Source: Halorutilales archaeon Cl-col2-1
Lineage (GTDB): Archaea > Halobacteriota > Halobacteria > Halobacteriales > Afararchaeaceae
Direction of reading: 5' to 3'
NCBI GenBank assembly: GCA_041891055.1
Contig: CP169074.1
Location: 320,001-384,000 of the forward strand
Length of the DNA: 64,000 bases
Shown here: positions 15,018-54,425 of the stretch, piece after piece
How positions within the stretch are numbered: the first letter of the stretch is position 1
Layout of the letters: each line of letters opens with the position of its first letter
The notes under the pieces: model-generated
The model's input: the letters and a program-made list of their open reading frames with translations, nothing else
Database searches by the model: none
Told to the model about the DNA's origin: nothing
Translations under genes and position numbers: made by a program

Positions 15018-15468
15018 TTGACATCCTCACCCGCCTGAAGTCGGGTGAATCCCACATTGGGAATTTAAGGTTTCCAACCAACACAACCTTGTCAGGAGTT
15101 TCCCCCATTCACGGTTATATCGGCTGAAGGCTGTGCCAAACAGCCGTTACTCCTATCCTCTCGGACTCGGAGTTATCTCTGAACTTCGTTCAGAGGTTAA
15201 CGAAGCTTTGCTTCGTGATATCTTTCTACCTACCTTCTGTGGGGTTTTCACAACACACTTTTTAATGCATTTTCACAACCCTTCCGTATATTACCTCGTT
15301 ACTTTGGGCGGGTAAACCGCCTACGTAGGTTGATTGACCCATACAAAGATTCGTTGTGGTACTACTAAACTTTTACTGAAATTCCGGTATAGTCACCGAA
15401 ATAGTAAGTTGAGTACTTCGACGGATTCATCCCGCACCTAAAGGTGCGGGTATTCTCCTGTGCTATCT
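15018..15468 (-). mobile_element. Non-autonomous IS200/IS605-family (IS1341/tnpB-derived) element
   Basis: Subterminal hairpins at both ends (CCCGCACCTAAAGGTGCGGG ~15431-15450; CACCCGCCTGAAGTCGGGTG ~15028-15047). Minus-strand right end ...GAGGATGTCAA; left end follows TTAT. Retains tnpB 3' remnants (RKITPSP, DRSNGCLAQP); no full ORF. Confidence 0.8.
15174..15223. repeat. 45-nt twin-hairpin insertion with TATCT direct repeats
   Basis: TATCT (15174-15178, 15219-15223) flank CTCTGAAC-TTC-GTTCAGAG and ACGAAGC-TTT-GCTTCGT. Confidence 0.85.
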
Positions 15469-42781: not shown

Positions 42782-43070
42782 TTGAGCGAGGACTCACAGA
42801 CCCAGAAAATCTACTGCGAAGACTGCAGCCTACATATCGACGCCGAGATCTGGGAGACCCACCTCAGAAACAGACACCCCAGAGAATACGATCCCGCCAC
42901 GTTCGGAAATCTCTAATTTCCGAGCCATCAAAATCATAGATTTTGAGACGTTCGACCTCAACGACTACCTAGACGTCGACGATAGTAGCGGAGGCGGCAA
43001 AGAAAGTGTCGACAAGTCACGCGTCCTCGAACCTTTGAGACGGCGGTCGAGTACTACCACGACCAACTCG
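42782..43070 (+). pseudogene. Small C2H2-zinc-finger ORF truncated by a twin-hairpin insertion
   Basis: AGGAGGTGA ribosome-binding site then TTG. YCEDCSLHIDAEIWETHLRNRH. The current stop (42914-42916) lies inside the insertion; removing it restores ...PATFDLNDYLDVDD. Confidence 0.6.
42899..42954. repeat. 49-nt twin-hairpin insertion with ACGTTCG direct repeats
   Basis: ACGTTCG at 42899-42905 and 42948-42954 flank CGGAAATC-TCT-AATTTCCG and TCAAAATC-ATA-GATTTTGA, with a GAGCCA-type linker. Confidence 0.88.
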
Positions 43071-48601: not shown

Positions 48602-49259
48602 GGCGTTGGTGAATCGCCATACGAAGCTTGATTTACTGTTTTACGGCATGTTTGATGTTGTAGACAGAGCAGATCAGGATGAGTTCACGAAACTCTCTGT
48701 ACCAGGCACGCTCACGCACGGCTTCACGAAGCACAGCTTCGTTAGCTGAAAATCTTCGATTTTAAGCTGTGCCGAGCGTGCGCTTGATGTTTGAGAAGAC
48801 GGTTTCAGACATGGATCTTTGACCATAGAGAGACCCATCGATTCTGGTGTCGCAAATCTGAGATTTGCGTACATCCAAAAATCAGAGATTTTTGAATACG
48901 TTATGCGCCTGATCGATGGGTCGGAACTCACGGTGTTTGGTGAGTGGTGCTTATCCGTAGACAGTGGAGAGAAACGATGGCGTAATCCGCGAAGCCGCCA
49001 CCCTGCTCTGGGGTGGCGGCTTCGCTCCGACCACCGACATCATGAACTCCGTTCATGAGCCTCAAAGCTCCGCTTTGAGACAGCGTTTTTAGCTAATGTC
49101 ACGACTCTATCAGTGATGTGTTGTGAATCTTTGATTCACATACGTTGGAACGCAAGCGTTCCAAAACGGGAGATTTTGGATATGTCATCGAAAACTTCCC
49201 GCTTCATCTCCTTTGCATTAGTGGCTTAATCCAACGCAGTCTAGTGATTCACCAAAACC
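48602..49259 (-). mobile_element. Degenerate IS5-family (ISH1-like) element with central deletion and four hairpin insertions
   Basis: IRs GGCGTTGGTGAATC and GATTCACCAAAACC. After removing the insertions the minus strand reads SKISRF-TDRVVTLAKNAV-GGRSEAATPEQGGGFADYAIVSLHCLRI [deletion] PLTKHREFRPIDQAHNA-RIDGSLYGQRSMSETVFSNIKRTLGTA-VRERAWYREFRELILICSVYNIKHAVKQ*. Confidence 0.88.
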
Positions 49260-50470: not shown

Positions 50471-51223
50471 ATGAAACAGAAAATAATAGCGACCTCGGCT
50501 TTAGTCATACTCCTCATGTCCGTAATGACACTCCCGGCGGTGTCCGCGCAGGAAAACAGTACTGACTCAGAAGTAAGGGAAAACTCAGGACTTTCGTTAG
50601 GACATCAGATCCAGGTAGTCGTCGAGTCACAGAGAAGTAAGGTCGTCGGAGACATCGAAAGAGAGGTGTTCAAACACTCGGTTGAGAACGCGAGCAATAA
50701 GTCCAGAGTAGTCAACCAAAAGGTCGAAGAAATACATAAGAGAACCACGGAAGCAGAACACGAACGCCAGAGACTTCTGGAACAGCTCCACAACGGATCT
50801 ATACAGCCACAGGAGTTCGCCGTCAAGATGTCAGATATAAATAATCAGATATCAGTGGCAGCGAGGGATATGAGAAAAGTGAACGAGACTATACAGAAGA
50901 AGGATATCAACAACGTAAGCCGAGAAGAGATGAATAGTTTCGAGAACAAAACACCGGTGAGTCCCGGGGTTCTTAGAACTGCGAACCAGGCACTTGATCT
51001 TGCACTAAATGCCGTTAACATGAGTGGTCAAGAGATTGCCCAAAAGGCAAGAAATATAGGGGGACAGAACGCTCCGGAAGATCTCATAACTGACAACTCG
51101 GGTAAGCCTAATAATGTATCCAGAGGAGTTCCTTCTGATGAAAAGCAGCCTAGTAAAGTTCAGGATCAGACCCAGGGAATGAGTGAGGCGGGTGAACTAC
51201 CCAGAGGTCAAGTTAAGCGATAG
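50471..51223 (+). CDS. Secreted hypothetical protein (helical)
   Basis: Signal peptide MKQKII...PAVSA; divergent from the DUF4382-like gene. Confidence 0.7.
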   Translation: MKQKIIATSALVILLMSVMTLPAVSAQENSTDSEVRENSGLSLGHQIQVVVESQRSKVVGDIEREVFKHSVENASNKSRVVNQKVEEIHKRTTEAEHERQRLLEQLHNGSIQPQEFAVKMSDINNQISVAARDMRKVNETIQKKDINNVSREEMNSFENKTPVSPGVLRTANQALDLALNAVNMSGQEIAQKARNIGGQNAPEDLITDNSGKPNNVSRGVPSDEKQPSKVQDQTQGMSEAGELPRGQVKR

Positions 51224-51369
51224 GTCTCTGGTGGCACTCTGCGACCATTTGCCGTTGTTTTTCCAGTTCGAAGAACGATGTTTTTTCTGGAAGAGTTTCC
51301 GTTGCTCCCGTTCAACTTGCAGTAGCGCGGAGTCCCCCTTGAGGGAGAAGGCTTAGCGCCTGCTATCAG

Positions 51370-52011
51370 CTAAACGAACTTTATTCCGAGATCCTTGAGA
51401 CCGTTCTTTATGCCTATATTTATAAGGAGGGGTGTTACGCTCTCTATCTGTGCGGCGTTTCCGAGGCTTCCGGCGTCGAGTGCGTTGACGCCTTCCACCG
51501 ACTCGACGACCTCGACTGCGGTCTGTTTCGCGTCTGCCTCCCCGAAGACGGCTATGTCGACTCCGAGTTCGGCGTCAGGGTCGGCGAGACGTCCCGCGGC
51601 TATGTTGTGGAAAGCACCCGCGACGCCGACCGAGTCAGGAAGACCGTCACGCACGATCTGTGCCGCGCTTCCCTCTTCGGGTCTGTCGTACTTGAAGCCG
51701 TCCTCGTCACGTTTCATGCTCGTGACGGGGGATATGACTGTCTTTTCTTCGTCTGCGACCTCGGCGACCTGATCCACGACGTCAGGGAGGGAGCCGAAAG
51801 GAACCGCGAGGACGACGACCTCGGCTTTAGCTGCGTCGGCGTTCGATCCGCTCTTGACTTCGACTCCCGTCCTCTCGGAGTACTCGTCGGCGGCTTCTGA
51901 TGCTCTGTCCTCATCCCTGCTTCCGACTACGACTTCGTGCCCAGCCTGAGCGAGACGCACTGAGAGACCGCCTCCGAAGTCACCCGTGCCTCCTATTATT
52001 CCTATTCTCAT
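51370..52011 (-). CDS. npdG: NADPH-dependent F420 reductase
   Basis: IIGGTGDFGGGL, VGSR, VLAVP, GSAA, AFHNIAA, IESVTPLLINI. Confidence 0.88.
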   Translation of the reverse strand: MRIGIIGGTGDFGGGLSVRLAQAGHEVVVGSRDEDRASEAADEYSERTGVEVKSGSNADAAKAEVVVLAVPFGSLPDVVDQVAEVADEEKTVISPVTSMKRDEDGFKYDRPEEGSAAQIVRDGLPDSVGVAGAFHNIAAGRLADPDAELGVDIAVFGEADAKQTAVEVVESVEGVNALDAGSLGNAAQIESVTPLLINIGIKNGLKDLGIKFV

Positions 52012-52120
52012 ACTTACTTAGTATGACGCCGTGGGAGTCGTTATAGATTGCGTTATACAGACGCAAGGCGGAGTCAAAGCACAATTCTTATACTTGTACC
52101 GCGATACTGTTAGAATGCGC

Positions 52121-52192
<72 letters not shown>

Positions 52193-52195
<3 letters not shown>

Positions 52196-52388
52196 AATTT
52201 CTCTGAAATTTGCACGGAACAGAATTGTAGATTCTGTGACGTTCGCTAATCTCTGATTAGCGTGCAAGCAAATCTTCGATTTGCGAACGTATGCAAATCA
52301 AAGATTTGCGAGCCTGCGAGATCAGAGATCTCGGAACGTTCGGAAATCTTCGATTTCCGAGCCAGCGAGAACGGAGTTCTCGGAACGG
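52193..52388. repeat. Array of eight triloop hairpins, 23-25 nt period
   Basis: Loop centres at ~52203, 52228, 52253, 52276, 52301, 52325, 52350 and 52374; stems differ and linkers alternate. Confidence 0.92.
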
Positions 52389-52484
52389 GAGAAAAACTCG
52401 TTCCCTCCTTGTGGGATTTTTCTATTTCTTCAGAGTCTTCCACTTTCGACGTATTTATCCAGGAACTGTGGTTACTTCCAATAG

Positions 52485-54425
52485 ATGTCTGACTCTGACG
52501 AGCATGGAGGATTCGAAAGTATACGTGAGGAGGTCAAGGGCAATCCTATCGTGAGATTGCTTGGCTACACCCGTCCCTACAAACTACGTCTGATCACTGG
52601 GGTATTGATGTCGTTCTGTACCCGTCTCGCACGCCTCGCACCCCCCGTAATCATAGCCACAGCGATAGATAGGATCATCTTCCAGCGTGGCGAACCGGGT
52701 TTACTTGCTCGGATAGGTTTAGTTCCCTCTGACACCGTCACTAATCTAAATGCCCGGGCTGAGCTGCTGGAAACCTTGGTAATCATAGCTGTTGTTGCCT
52801 ATCTCGTCCGGTCAGTGACACGGTTTCTTTCGCGGTATCTCATCCAGTCAGCCGCACAGAAGATACAACGCGACCTACGGAACGACACGTATGACCATCT
52901 CCAGCATCTTTCGATGAGCTTCTTCACTAACCATCAGACAGGCGGTATGATGTCGATTCTTAACAGTGACATCAACCGACTCGAACAGTTCCTCAACACC
53001 GAGTTCCGCCAGTTCCTCCGTGTGATAGCTATGGTCGGCGGGATTAGCCTAATCCTGTGGTACTATTCGCCTACTCTAGCCCTAATTGCTCTCGCACCTG
53101 TTCCTGTAGTAGGAGTTGCGAGCGGTGGATTCCTCCGTTGGATCGAGCCTCGGTACCAGTCCATCCGAGAGACTGTCGCACGTTTGAACACCCGTTTGGA
53201 GAATAACCTGGGCGGCGTTGCAGTCGTGAAAGCCTTCAACCGTTATGATTTCGAACGTGCCCGTGTAGAGAACCAGAGCCAGAGATACCACGACGAGAAG
53301 GTCGGTGCACTACGTATACGACGTGCTTTCTTCGCCGGTCTACGTTTATTAACGGGAGTGGTATTTGTCGTGGTGCTATACGTAGCTGGCAAGGACTTTA
53401 TAGCTACGCCTACGGGCAAAGAGCCGATAATCTCTGCAGGTGCCTTTGCGGCTTTCTTCATGCTGTTGAGACGTCTCTACTCGCCAATGCGACGAGTGGG
53501 GAAATCAGCTAATAAATATCAGCTTGCGAAATCGAGTGCAGAGCGAGTGTTCGGACTACTTGCAACTCAACCCAGTATGACTAGCCCGTCCGATCCGTAT
53601 CAACCACAGGAGATCGATGGCGACGTCGTGTTTGATTCTGTGTCTTTCGGGTATAACGACAGCAAAAACGAGAAAGTCATCGAGGATCTATCCTTAGAAG
53701 TGCCTGCAGGCACCACCATCGGTCTCGTAGGGGAAAGCGGAGCCGGAAAATCGACCCTGCTTAAACTCATACCGAGGCTCTATGACGTGGATTCCGGATC
53801 GGTCAAAGTTGATGGAACTGATGTACGTGAGTACGGTGTAGAGGCACTACGTGATAAGATAGCTGTAGTCGAACAGAATCCATATCTGTTCTCCGGAACG
53901 GTGGCAGAAAACATAGCCTATGGCAACAGAGAAATCCTCCGAGCCGAGAGTAGCCAGACTGCCACGGACAAAGAGGACGAAGATGAGGTTCGAAAACGGA
54001 TAACCGACGCAGCCCAGGCTGCTGAAGCCCACGGTTTCATACGCGATCTTCCGGACGGATATGACACACAGATAGGCGAACGAGGGGTTAAGCTCTCGGG
54101 AGGACAGCGTCAGCGGGTCGCAATCGCTAGAGCACTACTCAACGACCCCGATATAATAATATTCGACGAGGCGACGAGTGATGTCGATACTGAGACGGAG
54201 GATCTCATACAGCAGAGCCTCGAACGTCTCATTCACGACAGAACTGCTTTCATCATTGCTCACCGTCTTGCTACAACCAAGAATGCCGACCGGATAATTG
54301 TATTAGAGGACGGCGAAATAGTTGAATCGGGCACGCATAAAGAACTCGTACAGACCGAAGGAGTCTACGCATCGTTGTGGAACGCCCAAGCGAATATGAA
54401 TGAACCCATCGGATCGATAGGATAG
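52485..54425 (+). CDS. ABC exporter, fused permease/ATPase (MsbA-like)
   Basis: TM domain plus [37 protein letters not shown]. Confidence 0.93.
   Translation: MSDSDEHGGFESIREEVKGNPIVRLLGYTRPYKLRLITGVLMSFCTRLARLAPPVIIATAIDRIIFQRGEPGLLARIGLVPSDTVTNLNARAELLETLVIIAVVAYLVRSVTRFLSRYLIQSAAQKIQRDLRNDTYDHLQHLSMSFFTNHQTGGMMSILNSDINRLEQFLNTEFRQFLRVIAMVGGISLILWYYSPTLALIALAPVPVVGVASGGFLRWIEPRYQSIRETVARLNTRLENNLGGVAVVKAFNRYDFERARVENQSQRYHDEKVGALRIRRAFFAGLRLLTGVVFVVVLYVAGKDFIATPTGKEPIISAGAFAAFFMLLRRLYSPMRRVGKSANKYQLAKSSAERVFGLLATQPSMTSPSDPYQPQEIDGDVVFDSVSFGYNDSKNEKVIEDLSLEVPAGTTIGLVGESGAGKSTLLKLIPRLYDVDSGSVKVDGTDVREYGVEALRDKIAVVEQNPYLFSGTVAENIAYGNREILRAESSQTATDKEDEDEVRKRITDAAQAAEAHGFIRDLPDGYDTQIGERGVKLSGGQRQRVAIARALLNDPDIIIFDEATSDVDTETEDLIQQSLERLIHDRTAFIIAHRLATTKNADRIIVLEDGEIVESGTHKELVQTEGVYASLWNAQANMNEPIGSIG

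Follow-up and report, generated by a model that had tools for sequence, protein, structure and literature searches.

An array of hairpins behind tRNA-Glu in a haloarchaeon, read as a probable pile-up of miniature mobile elements

Related palindromic elements and the place of the array among them

Short palindromic elements that carry no transposase gene of their own are described from haloarchaea and bacteria. Here, we analyze an array of eight hairpins that starts at the 3' end of the tRNA-Glu(UUC) gene of Halorutilales archaeon Cl-col2-1. The array lies in a stretch of 64,000 nucleotides (nt), called the window, which is C1:320001-384000 of a four-contig genome of 2.06 Mb and 55% G+C (G000). 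Coordinates without a contig prefix are those of the window. With a probability of roughly 0.7, the array consists of four non-autonomous mobile elements of miniature size (e1 to e4), piled up one behind the other. It is best explained as one old tRNA-end module (e1) followed by three later head-to-tail insertions of a dispersed family (e2 to e4). The array is selfish DNA of a largely known kind, not a new system, and it probably has no function specific to this locus.

On our best reading, the closest known relatives are the PATE and SMR elements of Haloquadratum and the CGTC-tagged repetitive extragenic palindromes (REPs) of bacteria. The PATEs of Haloquadratum walsbyi are transposase-free and derived from IS605-type elements, and their 52-bp forms, which consist only of the termini, appear to be mobile (Dyall-Smith et al. 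2011, PMC3119063). SMR-A repeats prefer near-terminal palindromes of IS605-type elements as insertion sites (PMC3119063). As far as the passages of that paper on these elements go, the units described here share several features with them. They are also transposase-free palindromic elements of a haloarchaeon; PATEs, too, lack terminal inverted repeats and duplicate no target. Like SMR-A, the two-hairpin units (doublets) nest in IS605-type elements. The loss of PATE cores by repeat-mediated deletion parallels the chimeric hairpins seen here. However, SMR-A is about 110 bp long with prominent inverted terminal repeats, whereas the units here are 43-53 nt long without inverted termini. Moreover, the 52-bp PATEs collapse onto one palindrome, whereas the units here carry two different hairpins.

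CGTC-tagged REPs, which include Rickettsia RPE-4/6 and Neisseria dRS3, are described from bacteria only, with TGTC as a common variant of the tag (Di Nocera et al. 2013, PMC3733652). As described in that paper, the tetranucleotide tag lies outside the stem. The GACG and GACA tails found here are CGTC and TGTC on the other strand. Both groups consist mostly of dimers of unlike hairpins, have intragenic in-frame copies and possess no dedicated transposase gene. The same paper describes dimers that are mostly head-to-head with spacers of 20-100 bp, rare clusters and a negligible share of head-to-tail copies. Here, in contrast, head-to-tail arrays are common and the linkers are 3-6 nt long. Stems of CGTC-tagged REPs are 8-9 bp long and start with A/T pairs, and their loops are 4-5 nt, whereas the stems here are 7-9 bp long and the loops mostly 3 nt. 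A two-hairpin unit with a target-equals-end rule, common head-to-tail arrays, a tRNA-end class and an archaeal host was not met in the portions of PMC3119063 (its supplementary tables lie outside this scope) and PMC3733652 that bear on it. The CGTC-type tag in the present family stands beside the second hairpin (hairpin B) only.

The REPs and bacterial interspersed mosaic elements (BIMEs) of Gammaproteobacteria are short palindromic units that occur in hundreds of copies and in mosaic arrays with conserved short linkers. A single-copy Y1 transposase, the REP-associated tyrosine transposase (RAYT), is their presumed mobiliser. An earlier reading made from the sequence alone (the sequence-only reading) had called the array BIME-like. 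This is a fair analogy, given the short palindromic units in mosaic arrays, the conserved short linkers and the single-copy Y1 transposase, but not a case of membership. The flanks here are GACG/GACA and GCC without a GTAG tag, the transposase belongs to IS200/IS605 and lies beside tnpB instead of being a RAYT, and the units run head to tail, whereas those of BIMEs alternate.

IS200/IS605 insertion sequences (ISs) insert 3' of a short motif, and their right end holds a further short motif for cleavage, as outlined in PMC3119063. Like IS608 and ISDra2, the units here insert 3' of a 4-5-nt motif without target duplication, carry subterminal hairpins and have an end motif of their own. In IS608, the foot of the hairpin is much farther from the left boundary than the 1-5 nt seen in these units. 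Their target and end motifs are alike, unlike those of IS200/IS605. A CRISPR array, which consists of near-identical repeats of 24-48 nt with unique spacers between them, was considered and rejected: no tandem repeat was found, the conserved parts are just the 4-6-nt linkers, and the units are 56-78% alike. The description of the array as the inverse of CRISPR is a figure of speech without mechanistic content.

Four two-hairpin units and their copies elsewhere

The tRNA-Glu(UUC) gene is located at 52121-52195 on the plus strand (ARAGORN; Rfam tRNA, 53.7 bits), and its final 9 nt are GACGGAGCA. Between 52193 and 52382, an inverted-repeat search revealed seven perfect hairpins with 3-nt loops and one imperfect hairpin. 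Hairpin 1 (52193-52213) and hairpin 7 (52340-52360) have 9-bp stems, and hairpin 3 (52244-52262) has a stem of 8 bp. The stems of hairpins 4 (52268-52284), 5 (52293-52309), 6 (52317-52333) and 8 (52366-52382) are 7 bp long. The imperfect hairpin 2 (52219-52237) has a 7-bp stem and a 5-nt loop. About 0.02 perfect hairpins (stem of at least 7 bp, loop of 3 nt) are expected by chance per 200 nt, and the array has seven. DNA folding of the array gives -56.9 kcal/mol versus -28.3 +/- 3.2 kcal/mol in 200 dinucleotide shuffles, none of which equaled it (z -8.8). The eight-hairpin array is thus confirmed as real and far beyond chance.

Hairpin centers are 23-26 nt apart. The alternation of linkers from the third hairpin onward produces a period of 48-49 nt, and a 49-nt direct repeat is present at 73% identity. 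The sequence-only reading had proposed eight hairpins after tRNA-Glu, a first stem that uses the last three tRNA bases, and alternating linkers with a 48-49-nt doublet period; the analysis bears out all of these, the last by the direct repeat. The spacing that it gave as 23-25 nt has the slightly wider range above. It had also stated that the tRNA-terminal ACGGAGCA recurs as ACGGAACA. The recurrence exists at 52214-52221 but is weak, since homologous copies match at 6/8 and 5/8 positions. Tandem Repeats Finder, run over 51000-53500, reported no repeat because the units are only 56-78% alike. In an Rfam search of 51900-52700 (E<=1), the tRNA alone was above threshold, and the four other rows were far under their gathering scores.

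In the register set by GACG, the array is parsed into four two-hairpin units of 48-51 nt, placed head to tail in one orientation on the plus strand and each terminating in ACG. A GACG within the tRNA 3' end (52187-52190, plus strand) matches the preferred insertion motif of the family. Unit e1 (52191-52241, 51 nt) contains hairpins 1-2, ends in GACG and is specific to the tRNA-Glu end. Units e2 (52242-52289, 48 nt, hairpins 3-4), e3 (52290-52338, 49 nt, hairpins 5-6) and e4 (52339-52387, 49 nt, hairpins 7-8) end in AACG and are members of the dispersed family. The linker of e3 and e4 is of the GCC type. In the alternative register, insertion occurred right after the final tRNA base, 52195. Growth out of the tRNA, as first described, merges two parts: hairpins 1-2, the old tRNA-end module, and hairpins 3-8, which alone are dispersed-family units.

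Three matches of e1 were found in total, each 3' of a tRNA-Glu end: the one here, one in the orthologous locus of the sole congeneric genome available (G001), and one at C1:1277870-1277911. Copies of e2 occur at C1:914990 (100% identity over 43 nt), C1:1262810 (97.6% over 41 nt) and C1:1277820, and GACG precedes all three e2 copies whose upstream flank was read. Both e3 and e4 show only partial likeness to other loci. The first hairpin of e4 conforms to the family pattern TCGNNAATCNNNGATTNNCGAGCC (match at C1:372340). A search of the plasmid collection with e2-e4 in distant mode gave no match.

These copies bear on a simpler origin, in which one 49-nt doublet was duplicated in tandem by slippage or unequal crossing-over and then diverged without any transposition. 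Pairwise identity among e1-e4 is 56-78%, and the highest value, between e3 and e4, is what such a process would leave, as is the 49-nt direct repeat; chimeric hairpins indicate that unequal recombination between units does happen. However, e2 is only 63% identical to its array neighbours and is 100% identical to a copy about 540 kb away, so the array is not a local duplication. Together with the blank result of Tandem Repeats Finder and the presence of solitary doublets at otherwise empty sites far from arrays, this makes tandem duplication very improbable.

The units belong to a genome-wide family. G000 contains 514 perfect hairpins (stem of at least 7 bp, loop of 3 nt), compared with about 147 expected from a mononucleotide shuffle, and AATC is the loop-proximal part of the stem in 150 of them. 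They form 119 clusters of at least two perfect hairpins, of which 76 are doublets (about 43-44 nt); the largest array has nine hairpins. In a typical unit, a few bases precede hairpin A (17-21 nt); a linker of 3-6 nt leads to hairpin B (17-19 nt), which is followed by a tail. The linker often reads GCC with one more base, or resembles GTATCC. The pattern TCGNNAATCNNNGATTNNCGAGCC occurs 24 times in G000 and 23 times in G001, and never in the reversed reading. Both of its NN pairs are complementary in 45/47 matches, in which six different dinucleotides occur. In a sample of 81 genomes of the order, seven have the pattern, and it was not found in the other 74 searched. The seven are both genomes of this genus, three of the four of g20, which belongs to another family (3-9 copies each), and two of the three of g11 (one copy each).

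GCC-linker doublets change their prevailing orientation along C1. Up to 1.02 Mb, 27 are on the plus and 9 on the minus strand, and beyond that point 6 are plus and 18 minus; these counts are not independent. The trend could reflect a replication-strand bias, and it is the only hint of single-strand, strand-specific movement by a TnpA. C1 has a weak GC skew, from which neither an origin nor a terminus could be derived for comparison.

When the two congeners, or paralogous IS copies, are compared, a two-hairpin unit is either there in full or missing as a block. We aligned 1.27 Mb of G001 to G000, which yielded 154 blocks with an identity of 85% or more, 1.11 Mb in total, and catalogued all 61 indels of 30-320 nt irrespective of hairpins. 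Hairpins are carried by 13 of the 18 indels of 43-54 nt, and 10 of the 18 carry two. By comparison, one of 12 indels of 30-42 nt has hairpins, and four of six indels of 91-120 nt have at least two. The remaining catalogued indels are mostly simple repeats or unrelated sequence. When paralogous IS copies within each genome are added to the G000-G001 comparison, 23 pairs of filled and empty sites are obtained, 18 of them independent, with inserts of 43-53 nt. At least five indels are whole units gained or lost beside existing units (G1C16:32342, G1C5:37825, G1C13:34523, G1C15:17092 and G1C17:785).

The locus itself differs in the same manner. Three tRNA-Glu trailers were aligned: that of tRNA-Glu(UUC) in G000, the displaced trailer of tRNA-Glu(CUC) in G000, and the G001 orthologue. 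Unit e1 is common to all three, and e2 to the two G000 paralogues only. In the G001 trailer, an extra doublet separates e1 from the tRNA, the units that follow e1 are quite different, and the final nine tRNA-Glu bases occur three times. At one point, the displaced CUC trailer lacks whole hairpin units (one or three, depending on the alignment), with an imperfect chimeric hairpin at the joint. Synteny between G000 and G001 breaks exactly at the array end (52388 onward versus L002 from about 2500 onward). The filled and empty sites and the indels bear out the proposal of the sequence-only reading that a doublet of about 48-49 nt comes and goes. Two of the checks that it had set also had a positive outcome: array length differs by whole units from one species to the other and from one tRNA-Glu paralogue to the other, and a unit, e2, has near-identical copies elsewhere. 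The outcome that it had named as refuting its view did not occur. Its idea of iterative insertion at one site is supported, as each unit recreates the target.

The hairpins might instead be functional here, as a structured tRNA trailer for 3' processing or termination, as an insulator, or as sites for a dimeric protein that binds AATC-N3-GATT. We hold this to be quite unlikely. Stem complementarity is kept across six dinucleotide pairs, but a transposition mechanism that needs the hairpin would predict such covariation just as well. Also in its favor, counterparts of hairpin 1 behind four tRNAs pair with the last 2-4 bases of the respective tRNA, one genome of another family (L057) has a similar hairpin after tRNA-Glu, and no run of four or more T occurs before 52417. 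On the other hand, hairpins 3-8 are not conserved at the locus, even in the congener, and the same units are found inside IS elements and long open reading frames. Among 20 tRNA-Glu loci of other genera, the search pattern located the tRNA end in 13. One of these trailers was mostly masked; of the 12 that could be read, one has a single hairpin and none an array of this kind.

Target rule, tRNA ends and the candidate transposase

For the analysis of insertion sites, units were oriented by their GCC linker, independently of the flanking sequence. In an allowed register, ...C(G/A) immediately precedes nine of the 11 orientable independent units, and these nine terminate in ...AC(G/A); the other two are one base off. 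The pre-unit motifs among these events include AGACG, CGACG, TAACG, CAACG, CGGCA and CGACA. The insertion motif is NNC(G/A), mostly GACG, and the unit end is GAC(G/A). In 68 GCC-linker doublets across the genome, the 5 nt after hairpin B include GACGT (14), GGACG (9) and GACGG (6), and the bases that precede hairpin A are mostly ...CGT(T). Left and right unit ends, for example TTCG... and ...GACG, do not repeat each other in inverted form; there are no terminal inverted repeats, a hairpin lies near each end, and the hairpins start 1-5 nt from the left end. Since the unit's own end is the target motif of the family, each unit offers a fresh target on its 3' side, which explains the head-to-tail arrays.

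Although the pre-unit and end motifs are alike, they are often mismatched (AGACG/AGACA, CGGCA/AGACG, TAACG/CGACA and AGGCG/TAGCA), even where the flanks are at least 95% identical. This argues against target duplication, and a plain target-site-duplication model was ruled out for dispersed units on these grounds. The idea that the target is in general part of the stem of the first hairpin was also discarded; it is true for the tRNA-end class only and fails for dispersed units.

In the mechanism that we propose, the units would move as single strands by "peel and paste" of the IS200/IS605 type, with a Y1 (HUH) transposase acting in trans. The hairpins would serve as handles for the transposase, which would cleave at two motifs, one ahead of the unit and one at the unit's end. 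Units of the e1 class would carry a copy of the last 7-9 nt of the tRNA, leaving the tRNA intact. Units e2-e4 would have been added later in this lineage at the GACG supplied by e1.

A hairpin begins within a few bases of the 3' end in five of 43 tRNA genes. Behind tRNA-Pro(CGG), tRNA-Ile, tRNA-Ala(CGC) and tRNA-Glu(UUC), the last 7-9 bases of the tRNA are followed by a two-hairpin module of 42-43 nt and then by the same 7-9 bases again. In the case of tRNA-Glu, the second copy of the tRNA end is complete in G001; in G000, it is cut to GACG, and e2 follows. The first hairpin has an outer stem that pairs with the final 2-4 bases of the respective tRNA. The tRNA-Ala module is absent from G001 as one block of 50 nt. 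The first hairpin of the Pro/Ile type occurs only behind copies of those tRNA ends.

Two registers fit these data. Insertion may have taken place five bases within the tRNA, after ...CG, with the unit restoring the tRNA end. Alternatively, it may have taken place exactly after the tRNA, with the end of the unit copying the tRNA end and the tRNA untouched. The second register, combined with the pairing of the first hairpin, suggests that the tRNA-end class may read its target by base pairing.

The 3' ends of tRNAs also serve as integration sites in this genome. The intact tRNA-Glu(CUC) gene (C1:1335055-1335129) adjoins a tyrosine integrase gene (PF00589, 62.9 bits), and its last 41 nt are repeated at C1:1277909-1277950. 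The stretch of about 57 kb between them (C1:1277951-1335054) is therefore an integrated element, and the array after 1277909 is the old trailer of the tRNA. Behind tRNA-Ala(CGC), about 18 kb (C1:1671517-1689755) are enclosed by a direct repeat of about 115 nt, which comprises the last 13 nt of that tRNA, the doublet and about 60 nt of flanking sequence. This stretch has the look of a further integrated element. Inserts of about 90-110 nt were seen directly behind tRNA-Ile (C1:1656240-1656390) and tRNA-Thr(GGU) (C1:614880-614973), and also behind tRNA-Glu in six other genera (L052, L055, L056, L057, L059 and L061). They contain an inverted copy of the T arm and end with a second copy of the tRNA's last ~21 nt. 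They probably represent a different small element or an att remnant.

Such integrations open another origin for e1 and the repeated 7-9 nt, namely as debris of integrase-mediated integration (attL/attR remnants) and not as a transposon. The 57-kb element with its 41-nt flanking repeat, the 18 kb bracketed by the ~115-nt repeat and the ~90-110-nt inserts that end in the tRNA's last ~21 nt would all be in keeping with it. However, random decay would not yield the same architecture of 42-43 nt and two hairpins between repeats at four different tRNAs. The absence of the tRNA-Ala copy from G001 as a single block and the match of the first hairpin's outer stem to each tRNA's own end also argue for a defined module. 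We therefore consider integrase debris unlikely and retain the transposed module as the origin of e1.

As for the enzyme, the sole Y1 transposase gene of G000 (C1:979011-979418) encodes an IS200/IS605 TnpA (NF033573, 159.5 bits; Pfam, 133.7 bits). With the REP_Tyr_transpos (RAYT) model, this protein scores 26.1 bits, under the cut-off of 80. The tnpA gene adjoins tnpB; G000 has about 31 tnpB copies and 33 TnpB matches, and G001 has four TnpA matches. Hairpin clusters accumulate near TnpB: 47/119 lie within 1.8 kb of a TnpB match, compared with 5.6% expected. In addition, a block of 211 nt, in which six hairpins are nested in a G+C-rich inverted repeat CCCCGCCC/GGGCGGGG, occurs in three places at 98% identity: directly beside the only tnpA (C1:979411-979620), at C1:533432-533642 and at C2:51514-51724.

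Two homologous tnpA-tnpB elements, from G001 and from a genome of another family (G011), contain doublets that differ in sequence and occupy the same pair of positions: 3' of GGCG within the loop of the palindrome at the left end, and 3' of CGCG beyond the hairpin at the right end. The IS605 element itself ends in AGGCG, which resembles the target of the doublets. These nested sites and the AGGCG end tie the target of the doublets to the end motif of a complete IS605. An IS200/IS605 TnpA as the mobiliser is a serious candidate, judged from this genomic association, at somewhat less than even odds.

Several observations weigh against the pile-up of mobile elements or the mechanism proposed for it. 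At C1:906659, the pre-unit and end motifs show no likeness to each other. Unit e3 has no full-length copy elsewhere. The indels lack outgroup polarity, so that each may be an insertion or a precise loss. Chimeric hairpins at array joints indicate that recombination also shapes arrays; our best reading is that recombination between shared hairpin cores trims and reshuffles them. The perfect direct repeats of 7-9 nt in the tRNA-end class are not predicted by plain insertion without duplication. The IS at C1:1613826-1615445, the only one with ends defined (from an empty site), has G+C-rich hairpins with loops of 4-5 nt, which are unlike the AATC type, and the units are therefore not simply the fused ends of that IS. 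Finally, none of the three pattern-bearing g20 genomes, which are 63-78% complete, yielded a TnpA match.

A further reading, which goes beyond this evidence and which we regard as rather doubtful, makes the doublets the archaeal counterpart of "orphan" CGTC-tagged REPs moved by an ordinary IS200/IS605 TnpA. The target would be read by base pairing beside the first hairpin, with one guide for both ends, and a sub-lineage that carries a copy of the tRNA end would have been retargeted by nature to the ends of tRNA-Glu, -Ala, -Pro and -Ile. One guide for both ends would make target and unit end look alike. If true, these units would be among the smallest guided transposons known, which build arrays and sit in frame within genes.

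The pile-up of mobile units, for its part, provides a rule for the formation of hairpin arrays in archaea that can be checked from sequence: a unit regenerates the target that it used. With it, tagged palindromic mini-elements, so far described in bacteria, come to include haloarchaeal ones, and the physical tie to IS200/IS605 may help to identify the mobiliser of CGTC-type REPs. It also points to tRNA 3' ends and coding regions as places where insertions are tolerated. In genome annotation, it accounts for many unannotated hairpin clusters in haloarchaeal genomes and for the contig breaks that accompany them.

Other doublets and the surroundings of the array

Solitary doublets are found elsewhere in the window. 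Three of them (48851-48894, 49040-49079 and 49122-49164) each have an empty paralogous site elsewhere in G000. Another lies on the plus strand at 42903-42946, about 300 nt downstream of tRNA-Ala(GGC). The doublet at 15177-15216 has the same sequence at C1:464703, and G001 has it as a 45-nt insertion.

Doublets also occur within long open reading frames, which stay open, at C1:1205613-1205656, C1:645164-645208 and C1:1621357-1621400. The sites C1:1498813 and C1:267854, empty in G000, carry a doublet inside long open frames in G001. The frames that hold doublets are 429-1679 codons long, and five of six intragenic inserts are 45, 48 or 51 nt, i.e., in frame, like the palindromic elements of Rickettsia. 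Within tnpB frames, doublets are present without closing them at C1:129993-130035 and C1:219451-219493, and at 2446-2488 of L111 in a genome of another family.

For the metagenome contigs of four runs that match 51500-53000, no listed piece spans the array and no joints were seen, and nothing is concluded from them. Most end at the tRNA or within the repeats. A single low-depth loose end runs past hairpin 1 and continues into a different hairpin, from which nothing is concluded either. Matching DNA occurs in hypersaline or salt-lake metagenomes, and no RNA run was among the matches listed. The tRNA sequence and the acidic N-terminus of the neighbouring protein are likewise of a haloarchaeal type.

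Downstream of the array, the first run of at least four T after the tRNA is a T5 at 52417-52421 on the plus strand. It may be an archaeal terminator, and transcriptional read-through of the array would then be conceivable. An ABC transporter gene (Pfam ABC_membrane and ABC_tran) follows at 52485-54425 on the plus strand. G001 is without this gene at the tRNA-Glu locus, and synteny between the two genomes resumes at C1:375415.

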